Part shown: one piece after another, positions 20,609 to 64,000 of the stretch
Position numbering within the stretch: the first letter of the stretch is position 1
How the letters are laid out: each line of letters starts with the position of its first letter
Assembly (NCBI GenBank): GCA_018674495.1
Contig: JABHAA010000043.1
Span: 21,615-85,614, forward strand
DNA from: Rhodospirillaceae bacterium
GTDB taxonomy: Bacteria > Pseudomonadota > Alphaproteobacteria > Rhodospirillales > UBA2165
Direction of reading: 5' to 3'
Length of the DNA: 64,000 nt
Made by a program: the position numbers and the translations under genes
The notes under the pieces: generated by a model
Told to the model about the DNA's origin: nothing
Seen by the model: only the letters and a program-made list of their open reading frames with translations
Databases searched by the model: none

Positions 20609-21784
20609 GTGTATGCGCAATTGAAGCGGGCCACACATCTATTTCTGGATTCGTCCTCGCCGGGCGACAAGGCCGGCATGAGCTTCGATTATTTCATGAT
20701 CGCGCTGATTGTCGCCAACGTGTTCGCCATCATCCTGGAAACCGTCGAAAGCATCTACGTCAAATCGCCGGTGTTCTTTTTCTGGTTCGAGGTGGTATCG
20801 GTGGCCATCTTCACGCTGGAATATGTGCTTCGGGTCTGGTCCTGCGCCGAAGACCCGTCGCGCGGCAGCAACCATCCGATTATGGAGCGCGTGCGCTTTG
20901 TTTTAACGCCCATGGCGATGATCGATTTGCTCGCCTTCCTGCCCTTCTACCTAAGCGCCTTCTTCGGCATCGATTTGCGCATGCTGCGCGCTATCCGGCT
21001 CCTACGCTTGTTAAAACTGTCCCGCTATTCGCCGGCGCTCAGCGTCATCGGTTCGGTGATCATGGCCCAGCACAAGGCGCTGACGGCGGCGCTACTGGTC
21101 ATGCTGATCGCACTTTTGTTTTCGTCCAGCATTCTGTTTGTCCTCGAACAAGACGTGCAACCCGACAAATTCGCCTCCATCCCGGACGCCATGTGGTGGT
21201 CGCTGGCGACCCTGACCACGGTCGGCTATGGCGACGTGGCGCCGATCACGCCATTGGGGCGCTTCTTCGGCGGCATCACCATGATCATCGGCATCGGCAT
21301 GTTCGCTCTGCCCACCGGCGTGATCGCCACCGGCTTTGCCGACGAAATCCGGAAAAGGGATTTTGTCGTCAATTGGAAGCTGGTCTCCGGCGTGCCCCTG
21401 TTCCAGAGCCTCGATGCGGCCCAGGTTGCCGAGATTGTTTCCGTGCTGATGCCTCTGGTTGTGCCCTCGAATTACGCCGTGGTGCGCATCGGCGACGATG
21501 CCGACAGCATGTTCTTTATTATATCGGGACGGCTTGAGGTGGAGCTGCCGCCGAAACCGTTTTATTTGGAGGCCGGCGAATTTTTTGGCGAAATGGCGGT
21601 ACTGTCCGGGGGCAAACGCAGCGCTTCGGTGGTGGCGGTAACCGATTGCAATCTTCTGGAATTGAAGGTCGATGATTTCAAAAAGCTGATGGCGGCACAT
21701 CCGGCCATCGCCCAATCGCTACACGAAGTGATCGCCGAGCGCACCCGGCAATTGGAATTGGCGAGCAAGGAAGATCAGGTATAA
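20609..21784 (+). CDS. Cyclic-nucleotide-gated/regulated K+ channel (6-TM ion-transport domain + C-terminal cNMP-binding domain, MloK1-like)
   Basis: It has an S4-like segment LRAIRLLRLLKLSR and the K+ selectivity filter TLTTVGYGD. The C-terminal cNMP-binding motif is FFGEMAVLSGGKRSASVVA. Confidence 0.85.
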   Translation: MYAQLKRATHLFLDSSSPGDKAGMSFDYFMIALIVANVFAIILETVESIYVKSPVFFFWFEVVSVAIFTLEYVLRVWSCAEDPSRGSNHPIMERVRFVLTPMAMIDLLAFLPFYLSAFFGIDLRMLRAIRLLRLLKLSRYSPALSVIGSVIMAQHKALTAALLVMLIALLFSSSILFVLEQDVQPDKFASIPDAMWWSLATLTTVGYGDVAPITPLGRFFGGITMIIGIGMFALPTGVIATGFADEIRKRDFVVNWKLVSGVPLFQSLDAAQVAEIVSVLMPLVVPSNYAVVRIGDDADSMFFIISGRLEVELPPKPFYLEAGEFFGEMAVLSGGKRSASVVAVTDCNLLELKVDDFKKLMAAHPAIAQSLHEVIAERTRQLELASKEDQV

Positions 21785-49253: not shown

Positions 49254-49796
49254 ATGCCATATTTGAAATCAAAAGCCGGGACTTTGGTGATGGGCGTAAG
49301 CCTGTTCGCCCTCGCCGCCTGCGAGGAGCCCAAGGTTGAGGCCGCCATATTCGAAAACATTCAGCAATGCATTTCCAATGGCGATGCGAACCCGGAACAA
49401 TGCGAGCGAAACTTCCGTGAAGCCAAAAGCCAGCACGCCGCCGTCGCACCGAAATATGCAAACGAGGCCGATTGCCAGGCTGACTTCGGCGCCGGCAAAT
49501 GCGAAAAAGCACCTTATAGAACGGCGGGCGGCGGCTCGGTCTTCATGCCCTTGATGGCCGGCTACATGATGGGCTCCATGCTCTCAGGCAGGAGTTTCAT
49601 GTCGCCGCAGCCCTTGTACCGTTCGGCCTCCAGCCCCGGCACCTTCCGCACCGCCGACAATCGCAGCGCCGGCACCAGAACCGGGCGCACCCAGGTGGCG
49701 CGCACAGCCACGTCGCGCCCATCTGTCAAAACGGCAACCCGGTCGCGCGGCGGCTTCGGCTCATCCGGGCGGCGGTTCGGATCGGGCGCCACGTAA
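49254..49796 (+). CDS. DUF1190 (YjfM-like) lipoprotein
   Basis: It has a lipobox LFALAAC, Cys-containing segments (QQCISNGDANPEQCERNF, ADCQADFGAGKCE) and a Gly/Ser/Arg-rich tail. Confidence 0.7.
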   Translation: MPYLKSKAGTLVMGVSLFALAACEEPKVEAAIFENIQQCISNGDANPEQCERNFREAKSQHAAVAPKYANEADCQADFGAGKCEKAPYRTAGGGSVFMPLMAGYMMGSMLSGRSFMSPQPLYRSASSPGTFRTADNRSAGTRTGRTQVARTATSRPSVKTATRSRGGFGSSGRRFGSGAT

Positions 49797-49815: not shown

Positions 49816-50976
49816 ATGCAGCGCATTTCGGTTAGCGAACGGTCCGGCCTGGCCGCCGCAGCAGCTGAGCACGGTTTCGAATATGCCGCCAGCGAAGGCG
49901 TCACCGGCTGGGACGAAAGCGGCTACTACCAATTCACTATGGCCCAAATCCAAGATAATTTGGCGGCCCCGGCGGAAGAGCTGGAAGGCTTTTGCTTTGA
50001 ATTGGTCGAGCGCGCGGTCAATGACCAGGCGATCTTGGAGCGCTTAGGCATTGCCGAGCCGTTCTGGGACTATCTGGCCCAAAGCTGGCGGGATGGCGAT
50101 AAAAACCTCACTGGCAGGATGGATCTATCTTACGACGGCACCGGACCGGCGAAGCTTTTGGAATACAATGCCGACACGCCGACGGCGCTGTATGAGACGG
50201 CGGTGTTCCAATGGGAATGGCTGGAACAGGCCGCCGAAGAAGGATTGATCCCGGAAAATTGCGATCAGTTCAACGATGTCCATGAGGCCATTGTTCAGAG
50301 CTTTGCCGCGATGAGTATCGAAGGGATAGCCCACTTCGCCTGCAACACGGATATCGAAGACGATAAGGGCACCCTCGAATATCTGGAAGAGTGTGCCAAG
50401 GAGGCCGGGCTCAAGACGCACCTCTTGGCCATGAACGATATCGGCCTCGATGACTGGGGGAAATTCACCGACACCGAAGAGGATGTGATCACCACCTTGG
50501 TCAAATTGTATCCCTGGGAATGGATCATGGACGAGGAGTTTGGATTAAAAGTACCGGCCAGCCGCGTTCGCTTTATCGAGCCGCCATGGAAAGCCATCCT
50601 TTCCAACAAGGGCATGCTGGCACTGCTCTGGGAAATGTTCGAGGGGCACCCCAATCTTTTGCCGACCTTTTTCGAAGGCGATGCGGGCGCGGATGCACTG
50701 GCCGGCACCTATGTGCGCAAACCCTTGCTGGGGCGGCAAGGAGCGAATATTCAGATGTACCGGGACGGTGCATTGCAAGGCTCAAGCGATGGCCCCTATG
50801 GTGATGGCGGCCAAATCGTTCAGGGATGCGCACCCCTGCCCGATTGCGGCGGCAGATATCCGCTGCTCGGCCTTTGGCTGATCGCCAGCAAGGCCGCCGG
50901 ATTGTGTATCCGTGAAGGCCAGTCCTTGATCACCGGCCCCGATGCCCGAACGGTCCCGCACGTAATTCTGGATTGA
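49816..50976 (+). CDS. Glutathionylspermidine synthase-like ATP-grasp amide ligase (YjfC/YgiC family)
   Basis: 386 aa with GRMDLSYDGTGPAKLLEYNADTPTALYE, YPWEWI, PPWKAILSNKGMLALLWE and RKPLLGRQGANI. Confidence 0.85.
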   Translation: MQRISVSERSGLAAAAAEHGFEYAASEGVTGWDESGYYQFTMAQIQDNLAAPAEELEGFCFELVERAVNDQAILERLGIAEPFWDYLAQSWRDGDKNLTGRMDLSYDGTGPAKLLEYNADTPTALYETAVFQWEWLEQAAEEGLIPENCDQFNDVHEAIVQSFAAMSIEGIAHFACNTDIEDDKGTLEYLEECAKEAGLKTHLLAMNDIGLDDWGKFTDTEEDVITTLVKLYPWEWIMDEEFGLKVPASRVRFIEPPWKAILSNKGMLALLWEMFEGHPNLLPTFFEGDAGADALAGTYVRKPLLGRQGANIQMYRDGALQGSSDGPYGDGGQIVQGCAPLPDCGGRYPLLGLWLIASKAAGLCIREGQSLITGPDARTVPHVILD

Positions 50977-51059: not shown

Positions 51060-51980
51060 TTGCTCGATCCGGTCGAACTATTTCCGGAAGTGCCCAACAT
51101 CTATGCGTTTCCAAGCGTCCATGCCGACATGGTTTTCGACAAGTCCCGCGTCGCGGCCTATCGGGATGCGATCAATGAAACCGTCAAACCAGGGGATGTG
51201 GTTGCCGACCTCGGATCCGGAACCGGGCTCTTAAGCTTTCTCTGCCTCCAAGCTGGCGCGGCTCGTGTTCATGCCATAGAACGCAGCGACGTGATCGAAT
51301 GGTCGAAAGAACTGGCCGATAAAAACGGCTTTTCAGACCGCATGGAATTTCACAAGAAGGACGCCCGCGACGAAAGTCTGGAGCTCGGCGAAAAAGTCGA
51401 TGTCATCGTCAGCGAATTGATGGGGCATGTGGCCTTCGAAGAGGGTATGGCGGAAACCATTTGTGTCGCAAAGGAGCGATTTCTGAAACCAGGCGGTGCG
51501 ACTATCCCACAGACGGTGACCTTGCGGGCGGCACTTGTTCATGCGGATGAGCTTTATCGTAATTATATCGATTCATGGAACGTGGTCGAAGGCATCGATT
51601 ATTCGGCTATGCGGGAAAAAGCGGTTCAAAGCGCCTATGTTGTCGACATTCATGCCGACCAAATTTTATCCGACAGTCAGATTATTTCGGTCGAGGCGTT
51701 CTTGTCCAACCCACGAGATACCTACGACACATTCTCATTTACATCCTGGCGAACTGGCTCGATCAACGGCCTAGCGTTTTGGTTTGATGCCGACCTTACA
51801 GACCGAATTCGCTTGTCCAGCGGACCTAGGACCTACACCCATTGGCAGCAATGTTTTATACCATTTGAAAAACACATTAAAGTTTCAGCCAAACATAATA
51901 TTCAGGTTTTGATTGAAATGAAGTATCGCAAATCTTTTGATCAAAAATTCGAATTCAAAATTTCGAAAATTGATGCTTAA
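51060..51980 (+). CDS. Protein arginine N-methyltransferase (PRMT)-like class I SAM methyltransferase
   Basis: 306 aa with the PRMT signature set: HADMVFDKSRVAAYRDAI, motif I VADLGSGTGLLS, AIERS, double-E loop SELMGHVAFEEGM and THW loop YTHWQQCFIPF. It has a TTG start. Confidence 0.8.
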   Translation: MLDPVELFPEVPNIYAFPSVHADMVFDKSRVAAYRDAINETVKPGDVVADLGSGTGLLSFLCLQAGAARVHAIERSDVIEWSKELADKNGFSDRMEFHKKDARDESLELGEKVDVIVSELMGHVAFEEGMAETICVAKERFLKPGGATIPQTVTLRAALVHADELYRNYIDSWNVVEGIDYSAMREKAVQSAYVVDIHADQILSDSQIISVEAFLSNPRDTYDTFSFTSWRTGSINGLAFWFDADLTDRIRLSSGPRTYTHWQQCFIPFEKHIKVSAKHNIQVLIEMKYRKSFDQKFEFKISKIDA

Positions 51981-52015
51981 AAACGATCATTAAACTTCGT
52001 ATAGCTCTCAATAAT

Positions 52016-53722
52016 ATGAACCAAGAACCAGACATACCAATAAAAGAGGCCGAAGAGACTAAGGATCGTCGGACTCCTTCGGAGCCTGGACCCAACGATA
52101 CGGTTATAATGTTTGTGGATATTGCTGGCGCATCAGAAGTATCAAATCATATGTCCGTGGAAAAATATTACAAAAAATTTCTTAAAAAATTTAGCCAGCT
52201 ATTTATTCAAACGTGCAAGGAATTTTATAAGAATATACCTAAATCGATAATCGTCGATGAGGAGACGAAATGGTCTGCAAGAGGTGACGAAGGGATACTA
52301 TTTTTTTTCCCGGTCTATAAAGGTGAATGGAGCGATCAAGAGTATTATGAATCAAAAAACAGAGGACTCGCGACGTGCGTCGATACAGCGATCCACATAG
52401 GACTTGCCTTAAAGCGCAAGTGGCTTCTTTCAGAGGAAAATTCAGCTCGAATTGCCCAAGGAATAATGCCTATCGATTTGGGTGTCGGAATTCACGTTGG
52501 CAAAACTTGGATAACGATTGAAAACGGCGAATATCAACCTGAAGGCTATGCGATTAATCTTGGTAAGCGGGTGGAAAGCCATTCTCGGAACGGACGCTAT
52601 TCACGAATATTTGTCAGTGAGGCTGCGCATGCCGTGCTCGAATATCTGGCTGACGAAAGAACCTATACTTTCGACGAGGCAACATCGGTAGACGCAAAAG
52701 GATTTTCTCGAGAGGTTCGCGCGTTTGAAGTACAACATCATTTCCTCCCGACCGATTGGACAGACTATGTTTTATCTTTGGTAGATACGACACAACCATC
52801 TGACGGTATAGAACAAGATCAGCGCGACAAACGGACAAGACTTGCAAATCTATATACACCCGTTCCGACACAAAACGTCACGGAGGATGTCCAGTTTTCG
52901 ACAGATAAAGAGTTCGATAGGTATTTGAGCCTCACAAAGGAGGCGCGAGCGATAAACCCAACAAATATTTGGCTTTCTGAACAACTGATCAAGGCTGATA
53001 TGGTTTCAGACCTATACCATTTGGCCAAGATCAATGGAAAAGTGCGTGATCGATCAGATATTGAAAAGGACCTAGAAACTAAGTCAGAAATGGGAACCAA
53101 ATATCAAACTGCATTTGAAGTTGCTTCTTATCTTTCGCAGAGCGACTTGAGAGATGCTGGTGTTTTGATGATTCAGGGTCTTATAGAAGGTGAACGTCTC
53201 GATTTCGATGGAGAGCAACGTAGGTACAGGCGCGCACAAAATTTTTCAGATCAAATTGCTCGCTTGGCATGGTACAGGGGTTATTCATGCGCTCAGCAAG
53301 CCTACAACATATTTGATTGGGAAAAGGTCAATAAAGAGACCCGTGACATTACTAATAATTTCGACAGCCGCCAATTGGACTACTGCATTAAATTCGTGAG
53401 AGATGATATTGAGTTAATTGCCGACAAGGAGGCCCTCAAAATAAATCTTTGCGAATGGATAAAAAACGCCAGAGACTTTCTGACATCATCTGTGGAATTG
53501 TCCCCATTTTCGGCTTGGCCAAAGCAAGCATTGGGAATCGAACTTATTATGTGGACCAGCGACCAAACGGCAGAGGGGATGGAAGAGATAGAATATGGCA
53601 AAGAGCTAATTAAAGCTGCTTGTGAAATCTTGCCCGATGTAAAGCTGTTTCTAACCGAGCATAAATACATCGAAAAAATATCGGATGAGGAATGGGTTCA
53701 AGATATATTGTCCAATGAATAA
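52016..53722 (+). CDS. Divergent class III nucleotidyl cyclase-like domain fused to an approximately 320-aa helical domain of unknown family
   Basis: 568 aa. Segments that align to the cyclase homology domain are VIMFVDIAGASEVS, ARGDEGILFFF, GVGIHVGKTWI, GYAINLGKRVESHS, RIFVSEAAHAVL and KGFSREVRAFEV. This is the lowest-G+C gene of the window. Confidence 0.6.
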   Translation: MNQEPDIPIKEAEETKDRRTPSEPGPNDTVIMFVDIAGASEVSNHMSVEKYYKKFLKKFSQLFIQTCKEFYKNIPKSIIVDEETKWSARGDEGILFFFPVYKGEWSDQEYYESKNRGLATCVDTAIHIGLALKRKWLLSEENSARIAQGIMPIDLGVGIHVGKTWITIENGEYQPEGYAINLGKRVESHSRNGRYSRIFVSEAAHAVLEYLADERTYTFDEATSVDAKGFSREVRAFEVQHHFLPTDWTDYVLSLVDTTQPSDGIEQDQRDKRTRLANLYTPVPTQNVTEDVQFSTDKEFDRYLSLTKEARAINPTNIWLSEQLIKADMVSDLYHLAKINGKVRDRSDIEKDLETKSEMGTKYQTAFEVASYLSQSDLRDAGVLMIQGLIEGERLDFDGEQRRYRRAQNFSDQIARLAWYRGYSCAQQAYNIFDWEKVNKETRDITNNFDSRQLDYCIKFVRDDIELIADKEALKINLCEWIKNARDFLTSSVELSPFSAWPKQALGIELIMWTSDQTAEGMEEIEYGKELIKAACEILPDVKLFLTEHKYIEKISDEEWVQDILSNE

Positions 53723-54869
53723 ACTTCTTAGTCCAAACTTCATCTATGACGAACGCCAGCTAGAGCATTCTAATGCTCGCGTACTCGCCTTAGTATCTGA
53801 AAGCGGCTGCAAGGTCTTGTATTCCCCGAAGGCATGTACCGTTCCAGGCGTTTTGAAAAACCTCGCAAATCATATGGACGGATTCTCTTGCTCGTCATTA
53901 TTCGAAGTGCATCTGGTTCAGGAAGTGGTCAAGCATAGCGGTGCCATCCATTTGACTACGCCGGGCATTTTGGCATATCAAATCGATGAGATTATTGAGG
54001 CCTGTGACACCGTCGTTCTGAACAGCCTTTCCCAATGGCTTCGGTTTCGAGAAGAACTTAAAGGTACCGTCGATCTCGGTCTTCGCATCAATCCCCAATT
54101 ATCATTTGCCGAGGACCCCAGGTACGACCCTTGCCGAGAATATTCCAAATTGGGCGTACCGCTGGACCAGTTGGCAGACCAGTTCAGTAATTCGCCACAA
54201 ACATTTGTCGGACTAAACGGTCTCCATTTCCACAACAACTGTGATTCCACCGACCCGGCCGCGCTGGCGGCGACGGTCGATAAAATCATTGCCGCAATCC
54301 CAAGCCTCCTAAATCAAGTTAGTTGGATCAATCTTGGCGGTGGATATTTGCTCGATGAATTCGAGGAGCCTGATATATTTACAGGCACGGTCCAGCGCCT
54401 AACCACCGAATACGACCTAGATGTCATCATCGAGCCGGGCGCAGCATTGGTCCGAACCGCCGGCTCCATCGTTTCCTCCGTCATCGATTTGTTCGAAAGC
54501 GACGGCATTACCGTGGCGGTACTCGATACCACCGTGAACCATATGCCCGAAGTTCTTGAATACGAGTTTGTCCCGGATGTCCTGGGGCACGTGGACGGCG
54601 GTAAATATTCCTACCTGTTGGCCGGGTGTACCTGTCTCGCCGGAGACCAGTTTGGTATTTCATCCTTCGACGCGCCCATTGAAATCGGATCGACAATTAC
54701 CTTCCCCAACACGGGCGCCTATACCATCTCCCGCGCCAATACGTTTAATGGCGTGAATTTGCCATCGATTTACCGCCGGGATATGTCGGGCAATCTCATC
54801 CTTGAAAAAGAACATACGTTCGAAGAATTCGCGGCGCGGGCGGGGGTGGTTTCTAATGTTCGTGTCTGA
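53715..54869 (+). CDS. Carboxynorspermidine/carboxyspermidine decarboxylase (NspC/CANSDC) family PLP enzyme
   Basis: I moved the start to the ATG at 53715, which overlaps the upstream stop by 8 nt (ATGAATAA). Motifs are VLYSPKAC, VVLNSLSQWLRF, GLRINPQ, YDPCREYSKLG, GLHFHNNC, INLGGGY, IEPGAAL, LDTTVNHMPEVLEY, GCTCLAGD and NTFNGVNLPSIY. Confidence 0.85.
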   Translation: MNKLLSPNFIYDERQLEHSNARVLALVSESGCKVLYSPKACTVPGVLKNLANHMDGFSCSSLFEVHLVQEVVKHSGAIHLTTPGILAYQIDEIIEACDTVVLNSLSQWLRFREELKGTVDLGLRINPQLSFAEDPRYDPCREYSKLGVPLDQLADQFSNSPQTFVGLNGLHFHNNCDSTDPAALAATVDKIIAAIPSLLNQVSWINLGGGYLLDEFEEPDIFTGTVQRLTTEYDLDVIIEPGAALVRTAGSIVSSVIDLFESDGITVAVLDTTVNHMPEVLEYEFVPDVLGHVDGGKYSYLLAGCTCLAGDQFGISSFDAPIEIGSTITFPNTGAYTISRANTFNGVNLPSIYRRDMSGNLILEKEHTFEEFAARAGVVSNVRV

Positions 54870-56226
54870 ACAGAGTTTTTCTCTGCCCGCCCAGCAAGGC
54901 CAGAGCGATTTGATCGATTATTTCCGCCAGGCGTGCCGCTTTCGTTTGGACAAGGGGAGCGTTCCAATCCGTTTCGCGGTTACCGCCTCGGATGCCCAAG
55001 AATATAAGTGCGAAATTGGCGCGGCTGAAGACGTAAATTCGGCGACGGCTTTGAACGAAAATTCGATCTTTGATTTTCGCCGCCGCGAGACAGAAGACAC
55101 CAGCTCGTTCAACGCGGTCTTTCTGGTGCCAACGGGCATCGGCGCTGAAATCGGCGGGCATGCCGGCGATGCGACACCGGTGGCGCGTATGCTGGCGCAA
55201 TCCTGCGATGAATTGATTTTGCACCCCAACGCGGTAAATGCTTCCGATATAAATGAAGCACCGGAGAATTCCCTTTATCTGGAAGGCAGCGTCATCACCC
55301 GCCTGATGATGGGCAGCATTGGTCTGCAACGGGTGCGGTCGAACAGATTGCTCGTGGTCATTGATGGCGATCACGAAGATATATTTGTGAATGCCACGCT
55401 AAATTCGGTGGATGCCGCCAGGGCCTGTTATGGGGTTCATATCGTCGATGTGCTGAAAATGATTCCCCCCGTTCGCTTGGCCGGTGCGTTCTCGGAAGCG
55501 GGCCGCGCGGCTGGCACTGTCGAAAATTTAGACTACTTATTCGAAGTACTGGCGGAGCGGCGCCAGGACTATGATGCCGTCGCGATTGCATCCATCATTG
55601 ATATTCCAGATGGATCGGTGCTTGAGTATTTTGCCAGCGATGGCACGGAGGTAAATCCCTGGGGCGGCGTGGAAGCCATGCTGACCCATGCCATATCGGC
55701 GGAATATGATGTGCCGTCCGCACATGCGCCCATGATGGAAGGCCAAGATATTGCCAATGCCGATCTCGGTCAGGTTGATCCGCGCATGGCCGCCGAAGCT
55801 GTGTCCATGACATTCCTGAATTGTGTTATGAAGGGGCTTCAGAAAAGCCCTAAAATTATTTCGGATGCCAGCCTGTTTAATCGCCCGGAAATATTCACGG
55901 CTTCGAATGTTTCTTGTCTGGTGATCCCCGAGGGTTGCCTGGGTCTGCCAACCTTGGCCGCGTTGGAACAGGGAATTCCTGTCATTGCCGTAAAGGAAAA
56001 CCGCAACCTGATGCGCAACGAATTGGCCGCGCTACCATGGAAACCAGGCCAGTATTTTGAGGCCGAGAGCTATCTGGAGGCCTCCGGCGTTATAAACGCG
56101 CTGAAGGCCGGCATCGAGATAGGAACCCTAAGACGGCCACTCGGCCAAACAAAACCACAAATTGTGAGTAGAGAGCGTCAGGAAACGATCCCTCGCCCCG
56201 GCGACGGGAAAACCAATATCGGGTAG
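54856..56226 (+). CDS. DUF3326-like protein of unknown function
   Basis: I moved the start to the ATG at 54856, which overlaps the NspC-like gene by 14 nt. The motif VFLVPTGIGAEIGGHAGDATPVARMLA...LILHPNAVNAS matches my recollection of the DUF3326 family. There are no TM segments. Confidence 0.55.
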   Translation: MFVSEQSFSLPAQQGQSDLIDYFRQACRFRLDKGSVPIRFAVTASDAQEYKCEIGAAEDVNSATALNENSIFDFRRRETEDTSSFNAVFLVPTGIGAEIGGHAGDATPVARMLAQSCDELILHPNAVNASDINEAPENSLYLEGSVITRLMMGSIGLQRVRSNRLLVVIDGDHEDIFVNATLNSVDAARACYGVHIVDVLKMIPPVRLAGAFSEAGRAAGTVENLDYLFEVLAERRQDYDAVAIASIIDIPDGSVLEYFASDGTEVNPWGGVEAMLTHAISAEYDVPSAHAPMMEGQDIANADLGQVDPRMAAEAVSMTFLNCVMKGLQKSPKIISDASLFNRPEIFTASNVSCLVIPEGCLGLPTLAALEQGIPVIAVKENRNLMRNELAALPWKPGQYFEAESYLEASGVINALKAGIEIGTLRRPLGQTKPQIVSRERQETIPRPGDGKTNIG

Positions 56227-61337: not shown

Positions 61338-62105
61338 CTAGGAAATCGCGCTGCGTACGCCGGGGCCGTTCAAATAGGTGAAGCCGGCAGTGCGGGCGAC
61401 TTTGTCGAGTGTTTCGTTAGCAATGCCGTGCAAGTAGGTATGCAGACGCCCGGCCCCGGCAGAGGCGCAAAAGGTCTGCAAGTGCGGCTTGATCTGCTCC
61501 GCCGGCCAAGCCTTGTCCATCAGATGGAACGAGACGCCTTGGAAATTGCAATTCGTGAATATGGTAAAGTTGGTCCAGCCAGGGCGCGGCCGGGCGATGT
61601 AATGGCGGCAGAATGGAAACACTGTGATCGCAAGATTATCGAGATATTCGAGGCTGAGCTTTTCCGGGAAATTGAACAGCTCGAACACCAGTTTTCCTTC
61701 GGAATTGTTCTGAATTTCTCGGCATTTCTCGGCAAACGCATTCGCAAAGCTGGACAGGCCGAGACCCAGCACATTGATCGGCACAATCACCGTGGGCGAT
61801 TTCCCGTCCACCGAAACCTTGTTGATAAAACGCTCCACAAGGCTGAGCATTTTGCTCAAATTCGATGTCATCAGGGCTTGATCAAGAATACGCTCCGTCG
61901 ATCCGGCGACCAACAATGCGTCGCCGGACATAGCGCCGCCGGTGCCTTCGATTTCAGGCATGCAATAATACAGATTTTCCGCCGGCGCACCGGATACCAC
62001 CACCGGCCAGAACTTGGCGGTCAGATCGGCAGGGACAGTATTTGTCTGGGACAAGGGCTCGTTCACCGGTAATTTCCAAATTCGATTTTGGCGCAACGCT
62101 TGCAT
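61338..62105 (-). CDS. Hypothetical protein, possibly a degenerate EAL-like fold
   Basis: 255 aa. The spacing of IVPINV, LVFELFNFPE, GVSFHLMDK and YLHGIANETLDKVARTAGFTYLNGPG loosely parallels EAL-domain blocks, but the catalytic residues are replaced. The assignment is weak. Confidence 0.45.
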   Translation of the reverse strand: MQALRQNRIWKLPVNEPLSQTNTVPADLTAKFWPVVVSGAPAENLYYCMPEIEGTGGAMSGDALLVAGSTERILDQALMTSNLSKMLSLVERFINKVSVDGKSPTVIVPINVLGLGLSSFANAFAEKCREIQNNSEGKLVFELFNFPEKLSLEYLDNLAITVFPFCRHYIARPRPGWTNFTIFTNCNFQGVSFHLMDKAWPAEQIKPHLQTFCASAGAGRLHTYLHGIANETLDKVARTAGFTYLNGPGVRSAIS

Positions 62106-62138
62106 ACTAACATGTTAAGCGAAGCGGCCAAATTCAAG

Positions 62139-63335
62139 CTAAATGAATGACGCCACGGCGGCGGCGGCGGCGCCCATCAGGGCCAAGGCTATACCGCTCA
62201 TCATATAGGGCCGCGAAGGCCCGCCGAACAATGCTACCAGCTTGGCGATCCCCGCGCCGAAATACAGCAATGCCAACAATAAAGGCGGCAAAAACGGCAA
62301 ATGCACCAGCCAGAATAGGGGCCCCAAGGCTGGCCCGCCGATGCGCGGATCAAAGCCGAATAGAACCTGCCAGGCCAATTCCAGGTTAGCGCTGGCGCCC
62401 GGGAATGCACCGCCGAGGGGGCCGAGCCCAAGAGCCAGCACCGCGATGATCAGCAATCCGATCAAAAGCCGGCCAGCCGTGGCCAATCGACCGGCATGCG
62501 GGCGCGCCGCCTCCAAGGTGATTGCCGCCGCCAATCCGGTGGCCAGAAAGCTGGCCAGCATCATGCGCCAATTAGAATGCACGGGCAGATCGGCTACCGC
62601 CAGATGGCCGGCCAGAAAGGCACCGTAGGTGGCCAAATACACGAACGGGAGGGATGCCGCGAAAACCGCGAATTGGCGATCAAGGACGGATTTCAAAGGC
62701 CCGGCTTGGAGCCGCCGCGCCCCCAGCCGCGCCGCCAGAACGGCGGACTGGCAGACGAAATACAATAACGGCGCCGCCAGGATGGAGCCGAGCACGGCGT
62801 GCCCAATGGGCATGTTGAGCAAGCGCCCGGTGAGCGAGGTGAACACATAACCCGGAACGAAAAAGAAGACGGCGGCGAATATGGCGACCGAAATAAAGGC
62901 GGTTAGTTTTTGCGCTCGGCGCATCTCGCCAAGGATCATGAGAAGGACATAGGCGGCGAATATGGCAAGCACCACCAGAAACAAAAACGCCGAGCCGCCG
63001 CGTAGCATATTGACCAAGGCGGCCAGTGGAATGACCACCAGGGTCATCGCCATGAACACGTTGCTGGCCAGCATATTGTCTTCCGATTGCCCGAACCAGT
63101 GTTCGATGAAAGCATCGCTGCGCACCGCCAATTGCCGGGCCACCAGACCGGGTAGGAGCCGCCAGCCGGTGTCCGCCAATCCGGCCCAGCCCTTGCGAAG
63201 CGCAGCTCTAAGGCCACCGCCAGCGTCCGCCGTCTGTCCTAAATCGAGAAACACCAGGAACAGCCCGACGGCGGCAAGGATGATGGCGGTTACGCTGAAC
63301 AGTCCATCGACAAATTCTATGCCCGGAATATTCAT
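62139..63335 (-). CDS. Polytopic membrane protein of unknown function
   Basis: I moved the start to the ATG at 63335, which has a GAGGAG ribosome-binding site. It is about 398 aa with at least 9 hydrophobic segments. Confidence 0.6.
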   Translation of the reverse strand: MNIPGIEFVDGLFSVTAIILAAVGLFLVFLDLGQTADAGGGLRAALRKGWAGLADTGWRLLPGLVARQLAVRSDAFIEHWFGQSEDNMLASNVFMAMTLVVIPLAALVNMLRGGSAFLFLVVLAIFAAYVLLMILGEMRRAQKLTAFISVAIFAAVFFFVPGYVFTSLTGRLLNMPIGHAVLGSILAAPLLYFVCQSAVLAARLGARRLQAGPLKSVLDRQFAVFAASLPFVYLATYGAFLAGHLAVADLPVHSNWRMMLASFLATGLAAAITLEAARPHAGRLATAGRLLIGLLIIAVLALGLGPLGGAFPGASANLELAWQVLFGFDPRIGGPALGPLFWLVHLPFLPPLLLALLYFGAGIAKLVALFGGPSRPYMMSGIALALMGAAAAAVASFI

Positions 63336-63360
63336 GGCTCCTCGGATTGCCTCTTTCTGA

Positions 63361-63816
63361 TCAGCGCGTAAATTCGATTTCGCCGCCCGGCAATAAATAA
63401 AGAACAATCGCAGCGCCATCGGTTACCGTCGGATTGTGCGCCGTGCCGGGGCCGTACACCACCCAGCCCTGGCCGCTGCCGTCAAACTTGGCATCGCCTT
63501 CCACTGGCATGACCAGATCCACCTCGCCCTTGGGATGGCTGTGGTGCGGGCCGACCACATCATTCATGGCCACCACATCGACGCTGAAGCCGTCCAGATC
63601 CTTGATGACGCGGCCAAACTTGATGCCGCCATATTCCTGATCGCACATCCAGCCCGCTTCGATGGCCGCATCGCAGGCCGCGCGGATGGCCCCGATTGTC
63701 TCGCCATCGGCGGGAAATGCATCATCCAAAAAGGCGCCCAAATCGGCGTCCAGCGCTCTTCCCTTAATGGCGCCGGTCACTTCCGCAACCAGCGCCTGGA
63801 ACCCAACCTTATCCAT
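63361..63816 (-). CDS. Small cupin-like protein (DUF4863-like)
   Basis: 151 aa with the His-rich metal-type motif GPHHSHPKGEVDLVMP, then GTAHNP. Confidence 0.55.
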   Translation of the reverse strand: MDKVGFQALVAEVTGAIKGRALDADLGAFLDDAFPADGETIGAIRAACDAAIEAGWMCDQEYGGIKFGRVIKDLDGFSVDVVAMNDVVGPHHSHPKGEVDLVMPVEGDAKFDGSGQGWVVYGPGTAHNPTVTDGAAIVLYLLPGGEIEFTR

Positions 63817-64000
63817 CTAAAATTCCTCCTAAAATTTCGCCGTCCCTTTGCCTAGCTACTGGATACATATCCCGGCCCGCCAAGGCTACCGGTTTCTCAA
63901 ATAGCCTTGTCGCCAGGGCCGCGTTCGCTTAAGATTGGCCATATTGTTCGGTACCCAAACAATATCTAAATGGACACCAAATACCATGCCCAATCCAGAC

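Follow-up and report, generated by a model that had tools for sequence, protein, structure and literature searches.

Pavettamine is a toxic hydroxylated polyamine and a potent toxin. PavB of its pathway is a DUF3326 protein, the C-terminal part of PavA is a lysine/ornithine-type group IV pyridoxal phosphate (PLP)-dependent decarboxylase, and deletion of either pavA or pavB abolishes formation of the triamine intermediate N-(5-aminopentyl)pentane-1,5-diamine (bioRxiv 10.64898/2026.06.12.731819). A decarboxylase and a DUF3326 protein therefore make up an experimentally implicated polyamine-forming pair. In the carboxy(nor)spermidine pathway, a decarboxylase (CASDC/NspC) is paired with carboxy(nor)spermidine dehydrogenase (CASDH), and the Pycsar and Pucsar systems join a cyclase (PycC) to an effector (PycTM or PycTIR). 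Here, we describe a four-gene block from a Rhodospirillaceae bacterium (GCA_018674495.1, contig JABHAA010000043.1) that touches on all three systems. It lies in a stretch of 64,000 nucleotides (the window; positions 21,615 to 85,614 of the contig) and encodes a protein arginine methyltransferase (PRMT)-like enzyme, a class III nucleotidyl cyclase-like protein, an NspC-like decarboxylase, and a DUF3326 protein. Each component is already known, as a polyamine module in the pav/NspC sense or as a Pycsar-related cyclase, but the combination is new. No paper describing a PRMT, a cyclase, a decarboxylase, and a DUF3326 protein together was found in a literature search, in agreement with an earlier reading of this DNA (the original prediction), which had called the system undescribed.

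The core of the block resembles pavABC of the Paraburkholderia/Caballeronia leaf endophytes and the Burkholderia pseudomallei complex in its pairing of a DUF3326 protein with a group IV PLP decarboxylase. However, PavA is a Rieske dioxygenase fused to a decarboxylase, whereas the enzyme described here is a stand-alone protein of 384 amino acids without a Rieske domain. A JmjC hydroxylase (PavC) is missing from the operon and its flanks (a genome-wide search for it was not run), while a PRMT-fold methyltransferase and a class III cyclase are present in addition. The hosts also differ: instead of Burkholderia, they are Alphaproteobacteria and a variety of metagenome lineages. With the carboxy(nor)spermidine pathway, the operon shares a homolog of NspC and carboxy(nor)spermidine decarboxylase (CANSDC). 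Indeed, the protein can be aligned with the CANSDC structure 9eaf over the entire length (E = 7e-69), as had been predicted, and it retains both the PLP lysine (in YSPKAC) and, toward the C terminus, the catalytic cysteine motif GxTCLAGD. With 271 bits on TIGR01047 nspC, it nevertheless stays below the equivalog cutoff of 409 bits; moreover, its partner is DUF3326 and not CASDH, and in other copies of the operon its slot is taken by a divergent AdoMetDC-like decarboxylase. No CASDH-like protein was found in the genome, whose sole strong Sacchrp_dh protein fits no NCBIfam family. The claim of the original prediction that neither usual partnership is present has to be revised on this point: DUF3326 is a conserved partner of the decarboxylase, and the two are found together repeatedly, both in host loci and in mobile operons. 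The likeness to Pycsar and Pucsar consists of the class III cyclase fold and of a PycTM neighbor in two mobile lineages. In contrast to those systems, the cyclase has a long C-terminal helical (TPR-like) domain and is not recognized by the PADLOC Pycsar models, three biosynthetic enzymes are part of the operon, and the window copy has no effector (PycTM or PycTIR) at its locus.

The four open reading frames (ORFs) are all intact and lie on the plus strand between 51060 and 56226 (Table 1). The PRMT-like gene starts with TTG, with the Shine-Dalgarno sequence GGAGG 8 nt upstream, and a gap of 35 nt (51981-52015) separates it from the cyclase gene. The two following junctions are overlaps, one of 8 nt between the cyclase and decarboxylase genes (ATGAATAA at 53715-53722) and one of 14 nt between the decarboxylase and DUF3326 genes (ATG at 54856 versus TGA at 54867-54869). 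Judged from these overlaps, the decarboxylase is predicted to be translationally coupled to the cyclase and DUF3326 to the decarboxylase. Promoter and terminator counts around the block were at background. The G+C content drops sharply inside the block: 1-kb windows over 51501-54000 have values of 0.418-0.434, the minimum of the 64-kb window, against 0.51-0.65 in the other windows. The G+C content and the G+C content at third codon positions (GC3) are 0.49 and 0.53 for the PRMT-like gene, 0.425 and 0.41 for the cyclase gene, 0.51 and 0.57 for the NspC-like gene, and 0.55 and 0.60 for the DUF3326 gene. The GC3 of the host genes flanking the block is 0.69-0.76, versus 0.41-0.60 in the four block genes; the block is compositionally foreign. 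Strand, gap, overlaps, and the fall in G+C content had all been noted in the original prediction, and the ORF coordinates, the 1-kb windows, and the per-gene GC3 values agree with it.

Immediately upstream of the block is a host gene for a glutathionylspermidine synthase-like (GSP_synth) amide ligase, which has a host-like GC3 of 0.685 and homologs with 55-87% identity in metagenome-assembled genomes (MAGs) of Rhodospirillales. A survey of 80 loci in GTDB with GSP_synth homologs, mostly from MAGs of Rhodospirillales/Rhodospirillaceae, pointed to an alphaproteobacterium as the host and revealed a conserved locus around this gene. DUF1190 lies just upstream of GSP_synth in 72 of the 80 loci, and 44 contain DUF1190 and GSP_synth without a decarboxylase pair. 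The other arrangements carry their own decarboxylase and DUF3326 genes after GSP_synth (36 of 80), in the same position as the block in the window: in 24 loci, DUF1190/GSP_synth is followed by a divergent AdoMetDC-like pyruvoyl decarboxylase and DUF3326, and in 12, GSP_synth is followed by an NspC-like gene and DUF3326. The latter order is also that of three family-level relatives. Hence, the decarboxylase slot alternates between two unrelated types, each of which serves polyamine chemistry, always beside DUF3326. The AdoMetDC-like proteins in this slot form a subfamily of their own, with no detectable similarity to the canonical SpeD that is encoded beside SpeE in the genome (on C130, the canonical spermidine synthase SpeE adjoins the canonical AdoMetDC, apart from the operon decarboxylase). 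In one relative (G008:C133, L008 6715-7861), the NspC-like gene of the host module has in-frame TGA and TAA stops, which indicates a decaying copy. While the genes of the block were described correctly in the original prediction, this conserved host locus of DUF1190, GSP_synth, decarboxylase, and DUF3326 had been overlooked.

The host modules share with the block the decarboxylase-DUF3326 pair, the interchangeable decarboxylase types, and the place downstream of GSP_synth, but they lack PRMT and cyclase genes, are host-like in composition, and form a separate clade. In 17 host loci, the GC3 values of GSP_synth, decarboxylase, and DUF3326 are concordant, whereas GSP_synth is the sole gene of the three with a host-like value in the window. 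Furthermore, in maximum-likelihood trees of DUF3326 and of the NspC-like enzyme, both window proteins are sisters to those of the metagenome locus L017 (support 100/100; 82-85% identity) within a clade of mobile operons, apart from the host-locus copies, and the closest relatives of the window decarboxylase are found in mobile PRMT-linked operons. In L017/L018:297-2073 (ERZ27259626, ERZ23495651), the loci most closely related to the window in its NspC-like and DUF3326 proteins, the PRMT gene is reduced to a 5′ fragment of 129 amino acids with 91% identity to the PRMT-like protein of the window, and the cyclase slot is occupied by an unrelated membrane protein of 389 amino acids without a Pfam or PADLOC match. 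Taken together, the tree placement, the GC3 contrast, and the PRMT remnant in L017 identify the whole PRMT-cyclase-decarboxylase-DUF3326 block as a mobile unit. The block was horizontally acquired, as proposed in the original prediction and borne out by composition, phylogeny, and recurrence elsewhere, and it landed where relatives keep a native decarboxylase and DUF3326. As possible marks of an integration site, no flanking insertion sequence (IS) elements and no tRNAs were found around the block, and repeats were at chance level.

Table 1. Genes of the four-gene block and of the adjoining host locus (positions in the window)
Feature	Position	Strand	Size and evidence
DUF1190 gene, first of the conserved host locus, outside the mobile block	49254..49796	+	Pfam E = 1.3e-39
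Glutathionylspermidine synthase-like (pre-ATP-grasp) amide ligase, host	49816..50976	+	Pfam GSP_synth E = 1.5e-127
PRMT-family protein-arginine N-methyltransferase-like enzyme	51060..51980	+	306 aa; Pfam PRMT_C, Methyltransf_31
Class III nucleotidyl cyclase-like protein	52016..53722	+	568 aa; AF2 model and Foldseek
NspC-like (group IV, fold III) PLP-dependent decarboxylase	53715..54869	+	384 aa; TIGR01047, CANSDC 9eaf
DUF3326 protein (PavB homolog)	54856..56226	+	456 aa; Pfam DUF3326

Outside these features, both extremes of skew in the window lie near its end, with an AT skew of 0.36 at 62001-63000 and a GC skew of −0.16 at 63001-64000; they may reflect replication or a local peculiarity of composition.

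Co-localization of the four gene families, for which other genomes and metagenomes were checked, is not restricted to the window: the block is present on at least 6 independent metagenome contigs, and about 30 of ~90 cyclase homologs have a PRMT homolog on the same contig. The full four-gene order was present in every PRMT-plus-cyclase context retrieved, namely in ERZ21829562 (IS-rich), ERZ27286120/JGI 3300018933, JGI 3300015615, and GCA_011392945/JGI 3300041965, and ERZ23486252/GCA_004196255 has the same order with an AdoMetDC-like gene in the decarboxylase slot. A divergent AdoMetDC-like enzyme fills this slot in L013/L014. Near-identical cyclase and PRMT genes occur on about 60-66 contigs, and this version is therefore widespread. 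An assembly chimera or artifact was rejected as well, with near-identical cyclase genes on ~60 contigs and PRMT genes on 66, from many samples, and with intact and coupled ORFs. In two lineages (L010 and L015), DUF3326 is directly followed by a gene for the two-transmembrane effector PycTM (PADLOC PycTM, E = 4.5e-31). In the original prediction, the pathway could be coupled to or controlled by a nucleotide second messenger; the cyclase travels in several contexts with PycTM instead. Further neighbors of mobile copies, which often lie beside defense genes, are a SIR2 defense protein and DUF4145 (L012), an Mrr-TPR protein (L015), PIN/MazE and BrnTA toxin-antitoxins, AAA ATPases, and transposases/IS elements. 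A PADLOC match of the methyltransferase domain to MADS mad2 was dismissed as spurious. On another metagenome contig (L020:3312-5567, ERZ28654779), an AdoMetDC-like decarboxylase is followed by a DUF3326 protein of 611 amino acids with an extra C-terminal region, which adjoins an AAA_15/AAA_21 ATPase and two HNH nuclease genes and has the look of a defense locus.

By its sequence, the first gene product is a true PRMT homolog. In a phmmer search against the PDB, it matched PRMT1, PRMT3, PRMT6, PRMT8, and CARM1 with E values of 1e-36 to 1e-28 (PRMT1 best, E = 1.8e-36), and motif I, the double-E loop (SELMGHVAFEEG), the THW loop (YTHWQQ), and the C-terminal β-barrel (PRMT_C) are all present, both loops being intact. 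The full PRMT signature set seen in the original prediction is thus confirmed by Pfam, PDB matches, and loop motifs. It was also checked whether the protein is an ordinary PrmA/ribosomal or small-molecule methyltransferase, and this was rejected, with E values of 1e-8 for PrmA-type models versus 1e-36 for the PRMT structures. Fold, motif I, double-E and THW loops, and the β-barrel are shared with eukaryotic-type PRMT1/3/6/8, but the enzyme described here is bacterial, operon encoded, and linked to a cyclase and polyamine enzymes. PRMTs act on proteins. The substrate of the PRMT-like enzyme is most likely a guanidine-bearing compound, plausibly a metabolite of the pathway or a protein.

The assignment of the fourth gene to DUF3326 was already part of the original prediction and is secured by Pfam (E = 3.3e-92). 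Its AlphaFold2 (AF2) model (pLDDT 85) has two α/β (Rossmann-like) domains, for which no significant match was found in the PDB with Foldseek; in VIA-wide/Atlas comparisons, a saccharopine dehydrogenase domain was matched with a Z score of 7.2. A known fold could thus not be assigned to this protein, and the structural matches do not point to a particular function. The family is very common (at least 4999 homologs); a search for relatives in the GTDB genome_contigs by peptide patterns found none. By analogy, DUF3326 may plausibly fill the condensing and reducing role of a CASDH-like enzyme. With PavA and PavB as the precedent, a polyamine-type small molecule, as had also been proposed in the original prediction, appears to be the most plausible product.

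The cyclase is only weakly matched by Pfam Guanylate_cyc (E = 1.6e-4, under the gathering score). Its AF2 model (pLDDT 84) comprises an N-terminal domain (residues ~25-250) and a C-terminal, all-helical, TPR-like domain (~290-568). With Foldseek, the N-terminal domain matched the guanylyl cyclase Cya2 of Synechocystis (2w01, E = 5e-7) as well as CyaB and CyaC (to 1e-5). The motifs FxDIxGASE and RGDEG and the Asn/Arg of NLAKR, which contain the metal-binding and transition-state residues (catalytic Asp, Asn, and Arg), are conserved in an alignment of 37 homologs, and TPR Pfam families were found in cyclase homologs. The modeled fold is that of class III cyclases; the Foldseek match and the motif conservation agree with the class III cyclase blocks recognized in the original prediction. 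PADLOC profiles for the Pycsar cyclase PycC matched neither the window cyclase nor that of L010. The immune cyclic nucleotide monophosphate (cNMP) cyclases with TPR regions of the Pucsar study have the same domain architecture. The cyclase most likely produces a 3′,5′-cyclic nucleotide when its C-terminal helical domain is triggered. Homologs of the cyclase also occur outside of the operon: a relative has a homolog of 573 amino acids (L009, G016:C1 ~304-305 kb; 32% identity) without PRMT, decarboxylase, or DUF3326, which adjoins an SBP_bac_5 transporter and a TctC-like protein, and a lone homolog lies beside DUF4145 and BrnTA in L016.

In our model, the block is a mobile operon with a polyamine-type biosynthetic core and a cyclic nucleotide signaling arm, a reading that we hold tentatively and give somewhat less than an even chance. 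The decarboxylase, either NspC-like and PLP dependent, as in the window, or pyruvoyl dependent and AdoMetDC-like, as in other copies, would act with DUF3326 to condense and decarboxylate amine or amino acid precursors into a triamine, by homology to PavA and PavB, and DUF3326 would stand in for the carboxy(nor)spermidine dehydrogenase of the canonical NspC pathway. The PRMT-fold enzyme would N-methylate a guanidino group, which plausibly belongs to the product of the pathway, and the class III cyclase would form a cNMP when its TPR-like domain is triggered. In the mobile contexts, the operon would most likely serve anti-phage defense, with the cNMP switching on the PycTM membrane effector and the biosynthetic arm adding a polyamine-type product. 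Since an effector gene is lacking in the window copy, the module of this genome probably works mainly as a polyamine(-modifying) pathway at the native locus, with the cyclase possibly acting as an orphan source of signal or as a regulator. It is imaginable, but distinctly doubtful, that the block represents an as yet unrecognized class of signal-coupled small-molecule systems, in which the synthesis of a methylated triamine is triggered by, or co-regulated with, the TPR-sensor cyclase and the product could be toxic or act against phages in mobile defense islands. This version takes DUF3326 as a "polyamine synthase" next to the PLP or pyruvoyl decarboxylase and has the PRMT N-methylate the guanidino group of a small molecule and not of a protein.

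Several observations speak against a joint biosynthetic and signaling operon. The decarboxylase and DUF3326 also form an ordinary-looking metabolic module in hosts, without PRMT or cyclase, and the latter two could be passengers. In VIA-wide/Atlas comparisons, the DUF3326 model reached middling Z scores of ~8-9 with lumazine synthase and GT-B glycosyltransferases, which do not indicate a function. Furthermore, the surroundings of L013 (TilS-like protein, sulfatases) are not a defense island, none of the PRMT, cyclase, decarboxylase, and DUF3326 proteins is recognized by PADLOC models, the PycTM effector (PF18967) was found neither in the window nor genome-wide, and the window copy lies among metabolic genes. 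The case for a defense role of the window copy is therefore weak. A purely metabolic replacement of the host module, which would make a polyamine conjugate together with GSP_synth and in which PRMT and cyclase are passengers or regulators outside of any defense, draws on some of these points: the block sits exactly at the position of the host module, no other DUF3326 or close NspC copy was found elsewhere in the genome, the pair is metabolic in the 36 host loci and in the pav pathway, and the neighborhood in the window is metabolic and contains no effector. However, the tight linkage of PRMT and cyclase to the pair on many independent mobile contigs argues for a joint function, and PycTM and defense genes adjoin several copies. 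We consider the metabolic replacement rather unlikely.

The same PycTM and defense neighbors, the likeness of the cyclase to the TPR-bearing immune cNMP cyclases, and the potent toxicity of pavettamine, the product of a DUF3326-containing pathway, are what anti-phage abortive infection would lead one to expect. The TPR-like domain would sense infection, and the cNMP would induce production of a toxic methylated polyamine analog or, in copies that have it, activate the PycTM effector, so that phage growth is no longer supported. Contrary to this idea, which we regard as improbable, the window copy is not accompanied by an effector, and the core genes go unrecognized by defense profiles. Finally, the closest structures of the PRMT-like enzyme are protein arginine methyltransferases, and the enzyme may methylate arginines of proteins, such as the TPR domain of its own cyclase or phage proteins, in a regulatory circuit apart from small-molecule chemistry. 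But a protein target is not apparent, and the tight linkage to polyamine enzymes is at least equally compatible with a small-molecule role; protein methylation is, in our view, highly improbable.

In sum, we propose that a mobile operon with a polyamine-type core and a cyclic nucleotide arm has been added to a conserved glutathionylspermidine synthase-like locus of a Rhodospirillaceae bacterium. If true, it would link three enzyme families for which no joint action is otherwise known from bacteria: PRMTs, class III cyclases, and DUF3326 polyamine enzymes. New methylated polyamines would become accessible through it, and nucleotide signaling would be tied to small-molecule synthesis, possibly in phage defense. 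The interchangeable PLP/pyruvoyl slot and the pavettamine precedent make the hypothesis that DUF3326 replaces CASDH a testable one. The connection to the pav pathway would also be of practical weight, as the DUF3326-dependent polyamines include a livestock toxin.

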